The notes beneath the pieces were generated by a model. That model made no database searches. It saw only the letters and a program-made list of their open reading frames with translations, and was not told where the DNA came from. Below are positions 52,978 through 60,151 of a DNA stretch of 64,000 nt, one piece after another. A program made the position numbers and the translations under genes. The number at the start of each line of letters is the position of its first letter. Position 1 is the stretch's first letter. Source of the stretch: Escherichia phage nepoznato; the sequence record NC_052658.1; one strand, given 5' to 3'.

Positions 52978-53679
52978 TTAACCTCCGTTGTTTGTTGGGG
53001 TATTAGTAGCTTCAGCAGTTCTTACTGTAATATCTGACTTAGGACCATTCGAAGCAACTCGACCTTTCACATCACCACCAGTCGATTTATTTGGTGCTGT
53101 TTTTACAGCAATAGCATTAGTAGTGGCCTTAGAAACGAGACGGATTTGTTCAAACTCTAAATCAAATTGCATAGCAAATTCAGATTTATAATCATAAGAG
53201 TAGCCTTTGAGAATAACATTTTCAAAAGTCCTGTGTTCTGTCAAAAGAACTATTGGTTGTCTTGACTCAAATATTTGATCTAGATATTCTATTGCTTGAG
53301 AAATCCTTGCCCCATTTACACCTGCACTGTATAATTGATCTCGCATAAGCCGAATTGGTGTTTCGGTAATTATACCTGAAAGTTTAAATCTGTTGTTTTT
53401 TATTTGAACGTGGTCACTTACATCCGATCCTGATTCTACTGGAAAACTTGTAACATCTGCCTCACGAGTTACACCTACTTCAGGGACCGAATCGAAAGTA
53501 ATTGCTTTAAAGTTTTGAATGTATTGATCACTTGAACTATTATAAACACTTGCTAAAATGCAGAAACCATTATCACCCTTTACAGTAGATGCCGAGGTAT
53601 TTTTATTCTCGGTAGAGTTGATTTCCTGTTCTGCCTTATAGACGGCTCTCACCGACTGTTGTGGAGTCATTGCTGCCAT
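52978..53679 (-). CDS. Tail protein (gpU-like position)
   Basis: 233 aa; directly downstream of the tape measure gene. Confidence 0.4.
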   Translation of the reverse strand: MAAMTPQQSVRAVYKAEQEINSTENKNTSASTVKGDNGFCILASVYNSSSDQYIQNFKAITFDSVPEVGVTREADVTSFPVESGSDVSDHVQIKNNRFKLSGIITETPIRLMRDQLYSAGVNGARISQAIEYLDQIFESRQPIVLLTEHRTFENVILKGYSYDYKSEFAMQFDLEFEQIRLVSKATTNAIAVKTAPNKSTGGDVKGRVASNGPKSDITVRTAEATNTPTNNGG

Positions 53680-53774
53680 GATAACCTCGTAGTAATGATA
53701 ATGCCAAAAGGAAGATGCAAGATCTTCCCATATTGATTATTGTAACACATATAGAAACTTCGTGTCAAGGGAAA

Positions 53775-53798
53775 CGAAAAAACCCCGCCGAAGCGAGG
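53775..53798 (-). terminator. Rho-independent terminator (minus strand) after the tape measure gene
   Basis: Minus-strand hairpin CCTCGC-TTCG-GCGGGG followed by TTTTTT. Confidence 0.6.
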
Positions 53799-53805
53799 TA
53801 TTTTA

Positions 53806-55746
53806 TTAACCACCAGTGTTAGATTGTCCACTTAGAGTTGAAAGAGACAAACGTTGGAAAATGCTATTTCCGCTATTTTGAATTCTTGCATCAAGAATAT
53901 TTCCAAACTCTGAAGAAGGGCTGATCGTAACTTTGATAAGATCACTTGGTATTGCTACCGTATTCTCAACAACAGGTTGATTACGAGCCAAACTTACGTT
54001 AGGTGTATAGGCTGATTCACGTAAATCTTCAAGAGGATTACCAAATCCAAAAGCACGTGTCCTTGTTTGTTCTCCTCTCCACATACGACCAATATCTTGT
54101 GTATCAATACCTGTTAAATTGTACAACCAATCTGCTACAGGATTGCTGTCTCCACTTTGCGTTGCCTCGTATGCTTTTTGTGCCATAGATTTATTAGGAT
54201 CTGTGTTATCTCCGAATGTATCTGGGAATGTTTCTTTAAGCCAATTGGTAAAAGATCCGAAACCATCTCCCAATTCTTTAGCAAAACCTCCTAATTGAAC
54301 TGTTGTCTTACCGAGTTCTTCACCTAAATCTTTGGCAAACTGATCTAGCACTTTAACATTATCCAACCAAGAATCATCTTTAGGTAAGGCTTTCACAAAA
54401 CCCTCTAAGAAGTGGTTCTGCATACCTTGACCTACAAGCTGAACTGTTGCAGCAAAACGAGTAAACTCTTTAGAAGCATCTATTTGTTCTTGAGTTAATG
54501 TTGCACCTGTTCTTTGAAGCATTTTCAATACTTCATTATACCCTTCGCCGTTTTTACTAAACATACGTTGGTAGTGCATAAGGTCATCACCAAGGTTTTC
54601 AAGAAGTCGCCCGATTTGAGCAGAGTTCATACCTCGACGCTCACCTTCATTAACAGTAGCCTGAATAAAAGCTAAAGGATCGTTCTGTAAAGGTTTAAGC
54701 TGTTCTGGATTCCATCCAAACAAGTTCATAATGTCATTTATGCCATTATCACCGCCTTTCCACTTCCCTTCTTTCTCATTCCATTTTGAGGCTAAAACTG
54801 TATTACCAAGACGTTCACGAACGTCTTTAATATTATCTATTGACTTAATAATATTTGCAGAGTCTACACCGTTCTGTTCACCCCAAGCTGTCATTGCCAA
54901 AATAGCGTTGGCGTTTGTCTGAACGTTTTCAGCACCACGACTTACAAGTTTAATTCTTTCGTTAGTATTCATCAACGTGTTACCAACTACAGAACCACCT
55001 GCAAACAGCCCAGCACCTATTAAAGAGGATGCAATCATGCGTGGATTAAGACCTGCTGCACCTTCTTTTAATTGTCCATATCGACGATCACGATCACGTT
55101 TTTGTTGAGCTAATTCACGCTTACGGTTGCGTTCTATATCTCTAAGTTCACGATTTCGCATACGTATACGCATTTTAGCTTCTGCTTCTAGCTCTCTACG
55201 AATACGGCGACGACCGCGAACCTCGTCTTCTATTTCAGCATTCTTTTCACGATGAGATCTGCGTAAGGCATCTAACTGGTGAGCAAGAGCTTGGTTCATA
55301 CGTTGAAGAGTTATTTCACCCTTTTTGTATTGCTCTACAGCTTTACCCATAACGTCTCTAGCTTCTTGCATAGCGCCAGGACTGGCTTTACTAAATGCTC
55401 TTGCTCGATAGTTAAAGTTCTGCAAACGAAGATTACCTAAGTCTTCCCTACGTGCTGCTGCTTTAGCTTCGCGTTCAGCAGCTTTACGAGCTTTTTCTTC
55501 TTCTCTTCCTTGCGGGGTTTTAGGAGTTCTAGGTCTGCCAGATCCGCCTACAGGAGCACCCGCTCCAGCGGGAGTAGGTGCTCGCATAGGTTTTTGACTT
55601 TGAGTTTGAGCTTTCTTAAGTTCACGCTCAATCTCTTTCATTTGTTGTCTAAACTTGGTCATGTTCATAGTGGGTTGCATTTTATTTGCAAACTTCTGAA
55701 CACTCAACACGGCATCTTTTGCTTCCTTGAGACTGTTCTTGTCCAC
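53806..55746 (-). CDS. Tail tape measure protein
   Basis: 646 aa; long N-terminal Arg/Glu-rich coiled coil, central hydrophobic segment MIASSLIGAGLFAGGSVVG; downstream of the frameshifted chaperone. Start is GTG with an SD almost adjacent, so the exact start is uncertain. Confidence 0.65.
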   Translation of the reverse strand: MDKNSLKEAKDAVLSVQKFANKMQPTMNMTKFRQQMKEIERELKKAQTQSQKPMRAPTPAGAGAPVGGSGRPRTPKTPQGREEEKARKAAEREAKAAARREDLGNLRLQNFNYRARAFSKASPGAMQEARDVMGKAVEQYKKGEITLQRMNQALAHQLDALRRSHREKNAEIEDEVRGRRRIRRELEAEAKMRIRMRNRELRDIERNRKRELAQQKRDRDRRYGQLKEGAAGLNPRMIASSLIGAGLFAGGSVVGNTLMNTNERIKLVSRGAENVQTNANAILAMTAWGEQNGVDSANIIKSIDNIKDVRERLGNTVLASKWNEKEGKWKGGDNGINDIMNLFGWNPEQLKPLQNDPLAFIQATVNEGERRGMNSAQIGRLLENLGDDLMHYQRMFSKNGEGYNEVLKMLQRTGATLTQEQIDASKEFTRFAATVQLVGQGMQNHFLEGFVKALPKDDSWLDNVKVLDQFAKDLGEELGKTTVQLGGFAKELGDGFGSFTNWLKETFPDTFGDNTDPNKSMAQKAYEATQSGDSNPVADWLYNLTGIDTQDIGRMWRGEQTRTRAFGFGNPLEDLRESAYTPNVSLARNQPVVENTVAIPSDLIKVTISPSSEFGNILDARIQNSGNSIFQRLSLSTLSGQSNTGG

Positions 55747-56088
55747 CTTAAACGTAACAACGTTACTAATTTTTGCATTGTATTCGGGAAGATTCGTTAA
55801 TTCTTCCCCGCTTTCGCTGCTGTAAGTTTCCCTACAGATTAGACTATATCTTCATCTACATGAGACGCTTTGCGCTTCGGACCACTTGATCCTACTCCCT
55901 TTCGGGATAGTCGTTGAACCTTCTCCTAAACGGAGCTTGGCTGCTGATTACCCAATCCACACACTTTTCAAACCGTGGCTTCATCTTTCGATTCGCAGTG
56001 GTAGTGTGGCTCTAAGGGTGTCCCAGCAATTCACAAAGTTGATAATGTGTATCACTACACATTAGCCCCTAAGTTAAGGCGTTAATTT
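55747..56088 (-). other. 342-nt non-coding spacer between the zinc-ribbon/T5orf172 ORF and the tape measure gene
   Basis: No ORF on either strand in an otherwise tightly packed operon; contains short hairpins (e.g. TCCC-TTTC-GGGA near 55905-55916). Confidence 0.4.
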
Positions 56089-57405
56089 CTAACAAAGTAT
56101 TCCTCCATTATCTTCAAAGATTTTCATAATGTTTTCCAGGTTGTAGATATAAGTTGTCTCTGTCCACCCGTCTGGAATGTCTTGTTGGGAGAAAACTCCG
56201 CAAGGTAAAACGTCTTTCACTTCTTTCTCTGCGGTGCGACAAGCTGCCACAGTTTCAAATCTATATAACTTAAACTTGTGTAGTTTATATTTAGCAAGTC
56301 GATTTTGTTGCCTTATTCTTATTCTTGGATTTTTTGTTATTCCAAATTTAAGACCAATAATACCAAGACCCTCATCTTCCACCAGGTGAATATAAGCATA
56401 GGTCTGATTTTTACCTCTACATTCTGGACAACCTTGTTCACCGTGTATAAAGTTTGTGATTGATATTTGTTGGATGCCGTGGGTTTTGCAAGAGTATTGA
56501 AAAGAACTCTTATTTGATTTGTAATCAATAAGCTTTACAAAAGTGTATCCACGTTCCTCACAAACCTTTTTCAATTGTTCTTTCATGTCGGTTTCTGGTT
56601 TCGGTTTGTGTCCGTGACAAGTAATACAACGGTTTCCCGATAACAAACCAAAAACAGTCATCTCTATCTCACCACCATGTTCTTCGCAAAAAACTACGAC
56701 TTTTGAGCGATTACCTTTAAACTTCCCAATCCAACGAATAAAGCTATAAGGTGTTTCAGTGTTAATTCGTAAAATATATTGCTCTTCAGTGTATACATAC
56801 CTTGAAGAACAACGACAAGGTTTAGCACCCCTCAAAAGATTAGACTTCATGCCTTCAAAGATACCAGAGCAAAGTCCAGCTTTTACAAACTTATCATTTG
56901 AACATGTAGGGCAGGTAACAAACCAATAAGGACTCCAACCATTTTTATCTTTTCTTTCAGATTTGGTAAAAGTAGTCCCATCTTCAAAGAAGCCTGTTGC
57001 CAAGAAATCTTCAGCTTTTACTAAATCTTTTCTTTTCCTGGGATCTACACACTTTGGACAACCCACACCCTTTCGAATCGTTGAAATTATACCAGTGTTC
57101 CATTCCCCATGTTCAGGACAAACACAACGGATTTTTGTAGAACTTGAGCCTGTGTATTCTTTACTCCAACCTAAAAAAGTATATCCTAAAGCTTCTGTAG
57201 CTCTCTTTGCTACGATGTAGGCTTGATCTTCACTTAGTTTTGGACATTTTGAGCAACCACAAGGTGTTTGCCTACCAAAGTTACTTTTGAACATGCTGAA
57301 AGGTTGAGGATAAAGTTCTTTATCTTCTGAACAGATAGAGCATGTAACCAAAATTTTGTCTGGATTGTTTGGGTCTTGACCTATAATATTTAAAACGCCA
57401 CGCAT
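56089..57405 (-). CDS. Zinc-ribbon repeat protein with C-terminal T5orf172/GIY-YIG-like domain (putative homing endonuclease-like selfish gene)
   Basis: Repeated CxxC modules (CSICSEDK, CGCSKCPK, CPEHG...CPKC, CPTCSN, CITCHGH, CPECRG); C-terminal YAYIHLVEDEGLGIIGLKFGITKNPRIRIRQQNR...DGWTE; GGAG SD; inserted between the chaperone and the tape measure gene. Confidence 0.5.
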   Translation of the reverse strand: MRGVLNIIGQDPNNPDKILVTCSICSEDKELYPQPFSMFKSNFGRQTPCGCSKCPKLSEDQAYIVAKRATEALGYTFLGWSKEYTGSSSTKIRCVCPEHGEWNTGIISTIRKGVGCPKCVDPRKRKDLVKAEDFLATGFFEDGTTFTKSERKDKNGWSPYWFVTCPTCSNDKFVKAGLCSGIFEGMKSNLLRGAKPCRCSSRYVYTEEQYILRINTETPYSFIRWIGKFKGNRSKVVVFCEEHGGEIEMTVFGLLSGNRCITCHGHKPKPETDMKEQLKKVCEERGYTFVKLIDYKSNKSSFQYSCKTHGIQQISITNFIHGEQGCPECRGKNQTYAYIHLVEDEGLGIIGLKFGITKNPRIRIRQQNRLAKYKLHKFKLYRFETVAACRTAEKEVKDVLPCGVFSQQDIPDGWTETTYIYNLENIMKIFEDNGGILC

Positions 57406-57457
57406 GATGTTACTCCTCTATTCAATAAAAGAAGTATACCACCGTGACGTTTTAAAG

Positions 57458-58206
57458 TCAAACAAGTTTCTTAAACAAATCTGACATTTTATTTGTCTGG
57501 TTTTGATGTTTTCTCTTTATTGAAGTGTCTTTAACATACATGGCTTCAACATACTCTTCGTATGTTAAATACTCATATAGTTTTAAAAGATAATCTACAC
57601 CGTAGTTATCTAATGTTTTCAGTGTTTCCGAGGTATCTTTAACGACTTTGCAAAGAATAACCTCATACCACTTCAAAGTAAGGGTTTTCGTTGCTGTGTC
57701 GATAGCATGTTCAATCGCAGGTGTTAATTTGCTGCTAAACTCGTCATCGCCTGAAGCTGTGTGAACAGTTTTCCGAAACCTCGTTTGAAAAAAGGGCCGT
57801 AGTTTACCTCCAGAACTTTAGCAGTAAGATCTAACACTAGTTCTGGGTGAGCCATAAATAATTCATCAAAATTTTCTGCAACGTTATAACCGTCTTGGGT
57901 ATAAACCTCATCTAAAATTTTACGCAAAAAGACCGTTAAATTCTTTTCTTCCAAACCTGCAAAAAGTTGAATCAGTGCCATAGCAATACGTGACTCAAGG
58001 TCTTCGTCTGCGGACATTGTTGCTGTGCTATACATAGTCATAGGAACAACCAGAACACTACCCAATTCTGGAATCCTGTCAAACACTTTAGATGGACTCC
58101 ACTTCATAATACGGAAAGTAACAGATCTGTTTCCATCTAACGGAATCTCAACTACTTCTTCTGGTCGAGCATATTTTTGAATTGTGTTATCTTGTTCTTG
58201 TGACAT
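57458..58206 (-). CDS. Tail assembly chaperone, -1 frameshift fusion product (gpE+E' / gpGT analogue)
   Basis: Slippery heptamer C-CCT-TTT on the minus strand (plus coordinates 57796-57790) in the 0 frame; the -1 frame is open from there to the stop at 57458 and runs into the listed 57458..57676 ORF with no intervening stop. Confidence 0.55.
57724..58206 (-). CDS. Tail assembly chaperone (short, in-frame product; P2 gpE / lambda gpG analogue)
   Basis: 160 aa ORF between tube and tape measure; GAGAGGA SD; contains the slippery site near its 3' end. Confidence 0.6.
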   Translation of the reverse strand: MSQEQDNTIQKYARPEEVVEIPLDGNRSVTFRIMKWSPSKVFDRIPELGSVLVVPMTMYSTATMSADEDLESRIAMALIQLFAGLEEKNLTVFLRKILDEVYTQDGYNVAENFDELFMAHPELVLDLTAKVLEVNYGPFFKRGFGKLFTQLQAMTSLAAN

Positions 58207-58226
58207 ATTTTCCTCTCTAATGATAA

Positions 58227-58246
58227 AAAGGGCATTTCTGCCCTTT
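58227..58246 (-). terminator. Intergenic hairpin between the tube and chaperone genes (possible attenuator/terminator)
   Basis: AAAGGGCA-TTTC-TGCCCTTT; modest U-tract. Confidence 0.35.
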
Positions 58247-58251
58247 ATTTA

Positions 58252-58731
58252 TTATTGAATTGTCAGAGCAGAGATTGAGTTAAGGGTGCTCAAACCTACA
58301 CCAACTTCATTACGCAGAAGGCTTGCATCTTTAAGACCAATAACCCATTGGTTCTCTGTAATCATTTCGCCAATAGTATCTTCAGGCTGACTTTGAATCC
58401 ATCCAATCGTGCTAATGTAATAGCCACGTGGGTCTTCCAAGTAAACACTGAACGCTACTTGACGAGTAGAATACATTGTTTGTGCATATGTTGCAAGTAC
58501 TTCGTTAGCTGGAGATGTGCGTTGCAAAGACATTGTGAGTGTTCCCAAACGGTTACGACTCAAAGCTAGTGAAACGTCGCCATCAGTCCCTGAATAAGGG
58601 TTGATAATATCGTTAGATTTAGCAATAACGATTTTAGTATCAGCCGCAAAACCCCACGGTTCCCAACCACCTAATGAAAGGATAACTTGAGATGGGTCGT
58701 AGGCCATTACGCCAGTAAGCATTTTATCCAT
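58252..58731 (-). CDS. Tail tube protein
   Basis: 159 aa; immediately downstream of the sheath gene and upstream of the chaperone-frameshift-tape measure set; AGAGGA SD. Confidence 0.5.
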   Translation of the reverse strand: MDKMLTGVMAYDPSQVILSLGGWEPWGFAADTKIVIAKSNDIINPYSGTDGDVSLALSRNRLGTLTMSLQRTSPANEVLATYAQTMYSTRQVAFSVYLEDPRGYYISTIGWIQSQPEDTIGEMITENQWVIGLKDASLLRNEVGVGLSTLNSISALTIQ

Positions 58732-58746
58732 TATAGATCCTCTTTA

Positions 58747-58763
58747 TTTTGATAACGGGGGCT
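58747..58763 (-). terminator. Intergenic hairpin between the sheath and tube genes
   Basis: CGGGGG-CTTAA-CCCCCG; weak U-tract. Confidence 0.3.
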
Positions 58764-58777
58764 TAACCCCCGCCGTA

Positions 58778-60151
58778 TTAGTTTGCAGTACGGTTAGTCA
58801 GGACGTTGACCTGAACTTTAACGTAATGGAAGAAGCCAGCGTAAACATATTCAATCTTCATCCCATCGACCAGACGAGCATTGATTTGCGCATCAGTCAT
58901 ATCGGCACGAGAAGGAATATAAACAATAGGTTTCAGATCGACACGCAAACCAGTCTCTTCAGAAGTAACAACTTCATTAGCGATGGAACCGTTGAGGATA
59001 CCTACTTGGATCGGGTTAGCCAGAACAGCTTGTCGAATCAAAGCCAGACCGTTTGAAGTAGCACGAACACCACCACCCAGCATAGACTGTTGTTTAAACA
59101 GTGTAAACAGTGATTCTTCTGTGCGAGCTTTAAACCACAAAGCATGAACAACATAGTCAACAAAGAAACCGCTAACCATCAATCCATCACGATAGAACAG
59201 AGTTCCATGCTCTTTACGATAGATGTTACCGTTCTGTTGAACAATATTGTTTTCCGAAGTCTGATCCAGTTTCTCGATCTCTACACCTACCAGTGTTTTA
59301 CCGTGAAGAGTAGTTAAACCAGGTTGACGAGAACAGATTGCACCAACAACTGCCGCTTCTGGGAATACAGAATCTGCATCGGTCATCCACAAAGCAAAGC
59401 AAGTGTTATTATAACCGAGGTCATTCAGTCGTTCCAGAACGTTATCTTCTGCTTTCGTTTTAATTCCAGGTTCAGAGCTAGAGAAGAAGTAAACTTTATC
59501 ATTCTCTTCTACCCATGCAGCCAAAGCTAGAACATCTTCTGTTTCATGGGAATCTGAAAGGGTCCAGAACCAGCTACTATCAATATCATGCAGAGCAGCA
59601 ATATCTTCCGTAATAGCATTAGCATAGACAGTTTCTTGAGTGAAACCTGTGCTGTCAATAGAACCAAACTTACCTTCTACTGGAGTGAAAGTCATTGCAG
59701 CGCCGTTGTTAGCTACTGTAAACAGTGGGCCATAAACAAGATCTGCATTGATCATTTCAGTCAGACCAACTACAATCTCTTGTGCAGTTGCAGTGTCATC
59801 AGCAATGAATTTAAATTCTTTTTTCTTGGTACCATTTTTGATGGTAATTGTGTAAGTTGCACTATCTTCTACGATTGGAGTTAGAGTAAAGTTTGTAACT
59901 TCACGCTTACCAACCATGACTTGATCTGGTGGGAACAAACCGTTAAACAGTTTGACTGCCATAATATACGCTGGATCATTTAATCCATAACCTGCTTCCA
60001 AAAGTGCATCGGAAGAAGAGTAATATTGAATCGCTTCGCCAGTTACGTTCTGACCTGTAAGGATCAGGGGAATATCGAACTGGGTTTCACGAATTGATGT
60101 AGCACCATACAGTAAAGTTACGGTTGCTACCTTTTCACGAAAAGTTGCCAT
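58778..60151 (-). CDS. Tail sheath protein
   Basis: 457 aa; conserved position upstream of the tube gene; call is positional. Confidence 0.5.
   Translation of the reverse strand: MATFREKVATVTLLYGATSIRETQFDIPLILTGQNVTGEAIQYYSSSDALLEAGYGLNDPAYIMAVKLFNGLFPPDQVMVGKREVTNFTLTPIVEDSATYTITIKNGTKKKEFKFIADDTATAQEIVVGLTEMINADLVYGPLFTVANNGAAMTFTPVEGKFGSIDSTGFTQETVYANAITEDIAALHDIDSSWFWTLSDSHETEDVLALAAWVEENDKVYFFSSSEPGIKTKAEDNVLERLNDLGYNNTCFALWMTDADSVFPEAAVVGAICSRQPGLTTLHGKTLVGVEIEKLDQTSENNIVQQNGNIYRKEHGTLFYRDGLMVSGFFVDYVVHALWFKARTEESLFTLFKQQSMLGGGVRATSNGLALIRQAVLANPIQVGILNGSIANEVVTSEETGLRVDLKPIVYIPSRADMTDAQINARLVDGMKIEYVYAGFFHYVKVQVNVLTNRTAN

Follow-up and report, generated by a model that had tools for sequence, protein, structure and literature searches.

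A predicted group I intron and a free-standing T5orf172-type endonuclease gene at the tape measure locus of an Escherichia coli phage

Two insertions at the chaperone/tape measure junction

We analysed a stretch of 64,000 nucleotides (nt) of Escherichia phage nepoznato (NC_052658.1), referred to as the window, and focused on the junction between the tail assembly chaperone and tape measure genes, where a predicted homing endonuclease gene and a predicted group I intron are located. The region is that of a Phapecoctavirus-type E. coli myophage, being 99.6% identical to Escherichia phage ESCO5 and ~99% identical to phAPEC8 and about 60 other Phapecoctavirus records; close relatives with an identity of at least 95% number ~63. 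Every gene in this part of the window is on the minus strand, as are all features described below. The chaperone gene (58206-57724; 160 amino acids (aa); Pfam PF21822 Phage_TAC_15, E 1.3e-23; the same gene is annotated in ESCO5) is followed in transcription order by an open reading frame (ORF) of 72 aa (57676-57458), an ORF of 438 aa (57405-56089), a tract of 342 nt (56088-55747), and last the tape measure gene as obtained by ORF-calling (55746-53806).

The original prediction, made from the sequence of the window, was that the 438-aa ORF and the 342-nt tract represent the insertion of a selfish element between the chaperone and tape measure genes, and both the position of these features and the synteny with other phages agree with this. 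The junction is empty in all ~58 close relatives among the matches listed, and gene and tract do not form part of a conserved core with a structural function; the relatives span 1358-1359 nt at the junction, and comparison of 1358 nt with the 3001 nt of the window leaves 1643 nt which are absent from the relatives. A base-by-base comparison with ESCO5 (L001) divides these into two distinct insertions. The order at the ESCO5 junction is ...AAGAAACTTGTTT-AATCCAACACGAGGAAC-ATACTTTGTTAGAAATTAACGCCT-CC-AAAATTAGT..., with the coding sequence of the ESCO5 tape measure annotated from the TTG of TTGTTAGAAATTAAC. Rather than a single gene followed by an intergenic spacer, as had been supposed, the window contains an endonuclease cassette and an intron, and the 24 nt between these two (56100-56077) are native and include this TTG startcodon; the native sequence restarts after the intron with CAAAAATTAGT (55775 onward).

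A predicted group I intron in the tape measure gene

A scan of positions 53000-59000 against Rfam matched RF00028 (group I catalytic intron) at 56088-55820 over the full length of the model (1-253 of 253) with 92.9 bits and E 1.3e-23, compared to a gathering score of 50 bits, and this was the sole Rfam family over threshold in the 64-kb window; no tRNA or tmRNA was found when these were looked for in the tract. From the sequence, the tract is best described as an ORF-less, putatively self-splicing group I intron of 301 nt (56076-55776) located inside the tape measure gene. The suggestion that the tract could hold a structured RNA was thus borne out, whereas the alternative of a homing-target remnant was not. 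As described originally, the tract has no sense-strand ORF of more than 30 aa, but it does not qualify as an intergenic non-coding spacer, with 56077-56088 belonging to exon 1 of the tape measure gene, 55776-56076 to the intron, and 55747-55775 to exon 2.

The boundaries of the intron were set independently by the intron-less alleles of ESCO5, phiWec179 and the contigs L019 and L020, which all contain GCCTC(C/A)AAAAT at the point of the 301-nt insert. The predicted 5' splice site follows a U (56077, exon ...GCCU) and the intron ends with ...AAUG, with the terminal G at 55776. Exon 1 is only 19 nt long (TTGTTAGAAATTAACGCCT, 56095-56077) and is the same as the 5' end of the annotated ESCO5 coding sequence; exon 2 is at 55775-53806. 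The insertion point of the intron is 19 nt past the start, within codon 7. The spliced gene, join(56095..56077, 55775..53806), has 1989 nt and encodes 662 aa, equal in length to that of ESCO5, and the in silico join of 56077 to 55775 reads TTG TTA GAA ATT AAC GCC TCA AAA ATT..., which translates to LLEINASKISNVVTFKVDKNSLKEAKDA as in ESCO5. Splicing in silico regenerates MLEINASKISNVVTFKVDKN without any difference from ESCO5, giving an exon junction of GCCU joined to CAAAAAUU, whereas the unspliced frame ends after 8 codons (LLEINALT and stop).

These comparisons also place the start of the tape measure gene, which on sequence grounds is the TTG at 56095-56093 and not the GTG at 55746. The TTG is preceded by an ordinary Shine-Dalgarno sequence, GGAGGA (56106-56101), which ends the endonuclease cassette and is largely within the 3' end of the endonuclease ORF, and the unusually placed Shine-Dalgarno sequence which the original prediction had noted for the GTG turned out to be an artefact of the misplaced start and no peculiarity of regulation. 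Exon 1 is conserved in phiWec179, phi92 and contig L006, with contig L009 having a GTG startcodon, and the 5' end of the gene (TTGTTAGAAATTAAC) is conserved as far as phi92; this is the best-conserved patch at the start of the gene, and the intron is inserted within it. That gene callers and ORF-calling put the start downstream of the tract would fit with a non-coding regulatory spacer or target remnant and a tape measure gene starting at GTG 55746, but we give this possibility next to no probability: the Rfam match is full-length, the GTG is an internal valine codon which is GTT in the sister contig L004, the 29 nt before the GTG differ between the window and L006 at four positions, all of which (4/4) are synonymous in the tape measure frame, and splicing restores a 26-aa N-terminus that is conserved in every empty allele. 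In the phage and its sister contigs, the tape measure gene has been mis-called as a fragment of 620-650 aa without its true start, and the intron is unannotated, as is the probable frameshift extension of the chaperone described below.

The helices P1-P5, P5a, P5b, P6, P7, P7.1, P7.2, P8, P9, P9.1 and P9.2 were drawn from the Rfam alignment and by inspection. In P1 (56080-56076/56069-56065) the exon sequence GCCU pairs with GGGGC (56069-56065), with a U-G pair at the splice site. This is followed by P2 (56064-56056/56051-56043), P3 (56038-56032/55874-55868), P4 (56028-56023/55947-55942), P5 (56019-56016/55953-55950), P5a (56009-56004/55962-55957) and P6 (55940-55932/55926-55919), and by P7 (55912-55908/55846-55842), of which the strands GACUA and UAGUC agree with the family consensus. 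Two further hairpins separate the 5' strand of P7 from the 3' strand of P3, P7.1 (UCCC-GAAA-GGGA, 55907-55896) and P7.2 (GGAUC-AAGU-GGUCC, 55892-55879), and with such extra hairpins being a criterion for the IA class and typical of phage introns (PMC3984707), the predicted intron is of subgroup IA. The 3' part consists of P8 (55867-55853), P9 (55837-55820), P9.1 (55817-55810) and P9.2 (55808-55786). Placing the 3' splice site where the Rfam match ends (55820) was considered and rejected, as the spliced frame then runs into a premature stop, and therefore the intron has the additional hairpins P9.1 and P9.2 beyond the model. The minimum free energy of the intron corresponds to a z-score of -4.5.

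A homologous intron (90% identical, 86.6 bits with RF00028) is present at the same site in a second lineage represented by contigs L006-L008, which allowed an analysis of covariation using three sequences from the two lineages (the window, L004 and L006) and 81 pairs, giving 243 pair cells. Standard pairs were found in 99.6% of these cells, and the changes include five double compensatory ones: U-A to C-G in P2, C-G to A-U and C-G to U-A in P5a, and U-A to C-G and G-C to U-G in P9. Another eight pair changes are one-sided and wobble-compatible, and a single pair is broken, which is the terminal pair of P9.2. In slid controls, with the 3' partner moved by 1-3 columns, 33-45% of the cells were paired and there were no compensatory changes. 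GNRA tetraloops are also retained despite changes in the loops (GUGA/GCGA in P2, GAAA/GUAA/GCAA in P7.1). This suggests that the P3-P9 core, including the P3/P7 pseudoknot, is kept by selection, as predicted for a functional ribozyme, with the two lineages giving this a modest statistical weight.

The endonuclease cassette and its distribution

The second insertion is a cassette of 1359 nt (57459-56101), as delimited by comparison with ESCO5, L019 and L020, and comprises a promoter-like site, a Shine-Dalgarno sequence and the 438-aa ORF. It stands in place of the 17 nt AATCCAACACGAGGAAC of the empty alleles, which fill the intergenic gap directly before the tape measure start. Its right edge can be placed only to within a few bases, as GGAGGA resembles the native Shine-Dalgarno sequence. 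The ORF (57405-56089) is preceded by the Shine-Dalgarno sequence GAGGAG (57418-57413), its last 12 nt are in native sequence, and its TAG stopcodon overlaps codons 2-3 of the tape measure gene. Position 57412 is a T in the window (GAGGAGT) and a G in all of L003-L005 (GAGGAGG), which is the sole difference common to these three contigs in 2.4 kb. At 57461-57433 there is a σ70-type promoter-like site with an extended -10 box (TTGACT-17-(TG)TATACT; 10/12 consensus matches plus TG), and sites at the equivalent position are also found in L006 (TTGACA-17-(TG)TATTAT) and L009 (TTGACA-17-(TG)TAAAAT), each with 11/12 matches plus TG, in DNA that otherwise barely aligns. Overall, promoter-like sites in the region are at chance level (6 found versus 6.4 expected), and thus the weight given to this site comes only from its conserved position in the three cassettes, from which we infer that the endonuclease gene has its own promoter, probably for the host RNA polymerase.

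The predicted protein has CapR modules at residues ~15-330 and a nuclease domain at ~333-438. Searches against Pfam matched CapR (PF21817) in five stretches (E 2.7e-46) and DUF723 (6.6e-5), and where six or more CxxC motifs had been claimed, there are exactly six (residues 22, 51, 116, 165, 260 and 326), next to three CxC motifs (49, 94 and 197). The proposed GIY-YIG or T5orf172-like C-terminus was more difficult to establish from the 438-aa protein alone, with the T5orf172 match (E 0.011, 16.6 bits, residues 336-398) falling under the 20-bit cut-off. At the level of homologues, T5orf172 was matched in 9/30 and MUG113 in 8/30 proteins, both belonging to the GIY-YIG clan; residues Y338, K353, G355, E393 and E416 are invariant across these 30 homologues and R363 is conserved in at least 90%, which gives candidate counterparts of the I-TevI residues Y6, Y17, R27 and E75, and an AlphaFold2 model of residues 321-438 has a GIY-YIG alpha/beta fold with a pLDDT of 94.5. 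The C-terminal nuclease domain was accepted because this family-level and fold evidence could be added to the weak Pfam match. Several CapR/DUF723 zinc modules (with the CxxC...CxC motif as defined in PMC10448857 and PMC8096241) combined with a C-terminal T5orf172 domain are the architecture of an endonuclease family found in ICP1 and many other phages (PMC10448857), and by sequence the 438-aa ORF encodes a homing endonuclease of this T5orf172/GIY-YIG type with five CapR zinc modules, as a free-standing gene located outside the intron.

Since the PLE protein CapR is a domesticated, DNA-binding offshoot of the T5orf172/CapR family which acts as repressor (PMC8096241), we also considered that the ORF could encode a similar regulator, or a decaying and inert relative, with the cassette being inherited vertically or by ordinary recombination. 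The sub-threshold T5orf172 score would be compatible with this, as would the divergence of the endonuclease gene, which is about as large as that of the backbone. However, the ORF is intact and full-length on all contigs, the nuclease fold is predicted with high confidence and the tyrosine, arginine and glutamate positions are conserved as described above, and in both lineages the presence or absence of the cassette concerns one exact site, in backgrounds which are 97.8-99.6% identical. This makes domestication quite improbable.

The ORF directly abuts the ribozyme core, and a superficially similar layout of an endonuclease gene and an intron core is found in an RNA polymerase gene of Serratia phage 2050HW, which could suggest a single composite mobile intron of ~1.7 kb with the endonuclease ORF inside and a 5' splice site upstream of 57405. 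Against this, the 24 native nt with the TTG startcodon lie between cassette and intron, with GGAGGA just upstream, P1 with its U-G pair forms at this native stretch, the upstream frame stops and leaves no exon that could be joined across the endonuclease gene, and L009 has the endonuclease gene without an intron. A composite intron is therefore highly improbable, and we prefer the description as two separate elements.

Upstream of the cassette, the -1 frame relative to the chaperone gene is open from 57817 to 57458, and the 72-aa ORF is its 3' part. The chaperone gene contains the slippery run C CCT TTT TTC at ~57796-57787, a motif also present in L009, and the 72-aa ORF is therefore probably a G/GT-like frameshift extension of the chaperone rather than a gene of its own. 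In the window, the -1 frame ends with a TGA stopcodon which the cassette provides with its initial bases. Most of the related records do not have the chaperone extension annotated as a frameshift product. Further upstream are the genes encoding the sheath (60151-58778), which is the first in transcription order, and the tube (58731-58252). At the other end, just past the stopcodon of the tape measure gene, is a GC-rich hairpin (CCUCGCUUCGGCGGGG) followed by a U-run (53777-53805), which looks like an intrinsic terminator ending the tape measure transcription unit rather than a small RNA. An istR-like Rfam match at 53777-53882 (24 bits, E 0.11, sub-threshold) was rejected, as it corresponds to this terminator hairpin.

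With regard to the distribution of the two elements, none of 50,697 phage records covers 80% of the region, and no phage record searched contains the insertion, the ~63 close relatives included. The exact endonuclease gene and intron were found on four other contigs (from two NCBI assemblies and Logan runs) with 1-10 substitutions over 2.4 kb, and contigs L006-L008 have a diverged endonuclease (68% aa identity) together with the 90%-identical intron at the identical site. Both lineages have empty counterparts in near-identical backgrounds: the flanks of the window are 99.6-100% identical to those of ESCO5 and the short contigs L019 and L020 (the latter two with the C-terminal 620 aa of the tape measure 100% identical to the window), with the cassette present versus absent at one site, while the nearest relative of L006, phiWec179, is 97.8% identical and empty. 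On all 7 contigs of the two lineages in which the intron occurs, the endonuclease gene is found with it. Contig L009 represents a third type of allele, as it has an endonuclease gene alone, which is a 47%-identical homologue at the same site with its own promoter, next to a contiguous tape measure gene. This endonuclease (L009 4001-4927) is without the first ~125 residues, corresponding to two zinc modules, with promoter, Shine-Dalgarno sequence and nuclease domain retained; the deletion could have changed the target specificity. It resembles the deletions described for ICP1 gp174.

Beyond these contigs, the nearest relatives of the endonuclease in phage databases are less than 40% identical. 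The nearest relatives of the intron are ~77% identical and located in RNA polymerase genes of Pseudomonas phages, with a range of 71-78% when Serratia phage 2050HW is included. The remoter endonuclease homologues P0005 and P0008 are located among small early-type genes and have no intron nearby, and therefore adjacency to an intron is not a trait of the whole family. We found no paper reporting introns in Phapecoctavirus.

Several other observations were made during these comparisons. The intron relatives, found in L014, L015 and L017 (Pseudomonas phages phPLST, HPP-Temi and PAP02) and in L016 (Serratia phage 2050HW, MF285618.1, 1470-2835), interrupt genes for virion or non-virion RNA polymerases and for the most part have no annotation; in L016 a "putative endonuclease" is located between exon 1 of the RNA polymerase beta gene and the intron core, outwardly as in the window, and in Litunavirus records the endonuclease gene is 3' of the intron core. 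Phage WPEC1 (L002, PV659873.1) was rejected as a variant locus and is not informative, as the record is rearranged or mosaic here: unrelated early-type genes and a tRNA come after the chaperone gene in place of the tape measure gene, the query matched seven separate places, and the record looks rearranged or mis-assembled at this locus. Finally, Campylobacter phage B15, Acinetobacter phage ABPW7 and Pseudomonas phage PsgM04F are 95-99% identical at the locus to E. coli Stephanstirmvirinae phages, and Campylobacter phages A145 and A110a are ~76% identical at the locus and phi92-like; the host labels of these five phages may be unreliable.

Proposed homing of the cassette and comparison with known systems

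The combined data point to two selfish elements, the endonuclease gene and the intron, which are located side by side and in our judgement are likely to move as one cassette, with collaborative or trans homing of the two parts as the most likely mechanism. In a mixed infection, the endonuclease would be expressed from its own σ70-type promoter and would cleave the empty chaperone/tape measure junction of a co-infecting relative, after which recombinational repair off the cassette-bearing genome would copy the endonuclease gene and the adjacent intron into the recipient. The carrier genome itself would be immune, because a long recognition site would be broken up by the two insertions. Insertion into an essential late gene would be tolerated, as the intron would be spliced out, the cassette would provide the upstream frame with a stopcodon, and the Shine-Dalgarno sequence and startcodon of the tape measure gene would be kept, overlapping with the 3' end of the endonuclease ORF.

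Collaborative homing in the strict sense requires that the recognition site of the endonuclease spans the intron insertion site. This is favoured by the constant pairing of endonuclease gene and intron in both lineages and by the conservation of the patch in which the intron is inserted, and we regard it as a realistic possibility, albeit with somewhat less than an even chance. It is also possible, at a slightly lower probability, that the endonuclease cuts only the intergenic site which its own cassette disrupts, and that a passive and independent intron 24 nt away is co-converted. Such trans homing has a precedent in T4, where mobE mobilises the defunct I-TevIII intron (PMC2790892), and it would fit with the endonuclease-only allele at the same site in L009, with the replacement of 17 native nt by the cassette, whose insertion can thus destroy its target, and with the identities between the window and L006, where the 90% for the intron and 71% for the endonuclease gene are compatible with separate histories. 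It does not explain why the intron is never seen without the endonuclease gene on any of the 7 contigs of the two intron lineages, or why its site is in TTGTTAGAAATTAAC, where conservation of the gene start is highest and which is the kind of sequence that endonucleases and introns usually target. Moreover, with its five zinc modules the endonuclease would be expected to have a contact site long enough to reach 24 nt downstream.

Returning to homing of the two-part cassette as a whole, a number of observations weigh against it. The endonuclease-only allele of L009 implies that the intron is not needed for self-immunity there, which weakens strict collaborative homing. The flanks contain almost no co-conversion tract, with the sole candidate being a change of TCC to TCA at exon-2 position 2; we considered this as a protective change linked to the endonuclease and rejected that idea, as the empty phiWec179 allele also has TCA, and it is more likely to be a co-converted donor base or neutral. 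The backbone is 69-84% identical between the window and L006, and with the endonuclease gene diverged to a similar extent, long vertical residence would be inseparable from repeated homing within lineages. An intron-only allele was not found, with 0 matches for the junction pattern ATTAAYGCCTTAAYTTAGGGGCT in IMG/VR and JGI metagenomes, searches which were uninformative, and no convincing helix could be drawn for the P10 pairing. Furthermore, the T5orf172/CapR endonucleases are an abundant family, but no member, including those of ICP1, is known to have been demonstrated to home in an experiment (PMC10448857).

The arrangement might also have consequences for the expression of the tape measure gene. 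Since its startcodon and first codons are within or next to P1, its Shine-Dalgarno sequence and start are overlapped by the end of the endonuclease ORF, and the σ70 promoter would transcribe exon 1 and the intron early, translation of the tape measure could depend on splicing and be coupled to that of the endonuclease, either as a switch of timing or dosage or as an addiction-like dependency. We consider this unlikely; if there were an addiction-like dependency, loss of either part would be lethal or would expose the genome to cleavage.

The practical value of these findings is in the corrected annotation of an essential gene and in an E. coli phage system for T5orf172 homing and the collaborative-homing model. 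The allele series is from E. coli phages which are easy to grow and of interest for therapy, and includes the empty junctions of ESCO5, phAPEC8 and phiWec179, two diverged donors with endonuclease and intron, and one endonuclease-only variant, which makes it suited to asking whether an intron protects against the nuclease of its neighbour, and how much of an essential structural operon is affected by co-conversion.

The closest known system is the terL locus of the vibriophage ICP1 (Barth, Dunham & Seed 2023; PMC10448857), where a T5orf172 nuclease with CapR-type zinc modules is likewise encoded by a free-standing gene which directly precedes exon 1 of an essential late gene; this exon is short and is missed by annotation pipelines, and the intron is without an ORF. 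That arrangement was interpreted as collaborative homing or endonuclease turnover. The loci differ in the host gene, which is the terminase gene in ICP1 and the tape measure gene in the E. coli Phapecoctavirus, in the presence of empty, endonuclease-only and endonuclease plus intron alleles in near-isogenic backgrounds for the window locus, and in the evidence for splicing, which was demonstrated by reverse transcription PCR (RT-PCR) for ICP1 and is predicted from sequence here. Tape measure genes are frequent targets (PMC10448857), and that of ICP1 is also targeted by group I introns and endonucleases, but there are three introns with HNH-3 endonucleases inside (PMC10448857), compared to one intron at codon 7 with the endonuclease outside in the window.

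Collaborative homing as a concept (PMC10448857, PMC3984707) has been described for the DNA polymerase intron of T3/PhiI-type phages with a free-standing HNH endonuclease, and for the psbA intron of cyanophage S-PM2 with F-CphI (PMC3984707, PMC6083498), and the proposed origin of mobile introns via this route rests on very few cases. The window locus has the corresponding layout of a free-standing endonuclease gene beside an ORF-less intron, co-inherited and 24 nt apart, but differs in that the endonuclease is of the GIY-YIG/T5orf172 type rather than HNH or EndoVII-like, that there is an endonuclease-only allele (L009), and that cleavage at the intron site, which is defining in the known systems, is putative here. 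There are also similarities with the T4 introns in td, nrdB and nrdD, their endonucleases I-TevI-III, and mobE (PMC2790892, PMC2988022): the introns are of the IA type with P7.1 and P7.2, they have an in-frame stopcodon soon past the 5' splice site, a GIY-YIG nuclease is joined to separate DNA-binding modules, and a neighbouring endonuclease is able to mobilise an intron without an active one, as may be the case in the window. In contrast to I-TevI, which has an N-terminal nuclease, the nuclease domain of the window endonuclease is C-terminal, its DNA-binding part consists of five zinc ribbons, and its ORF is not in an intron loop. Taken together, the cassette is not a new category but belongs to a known type, for which both the phage genus and the site, at codon 7 of the tape measure gene, are new.

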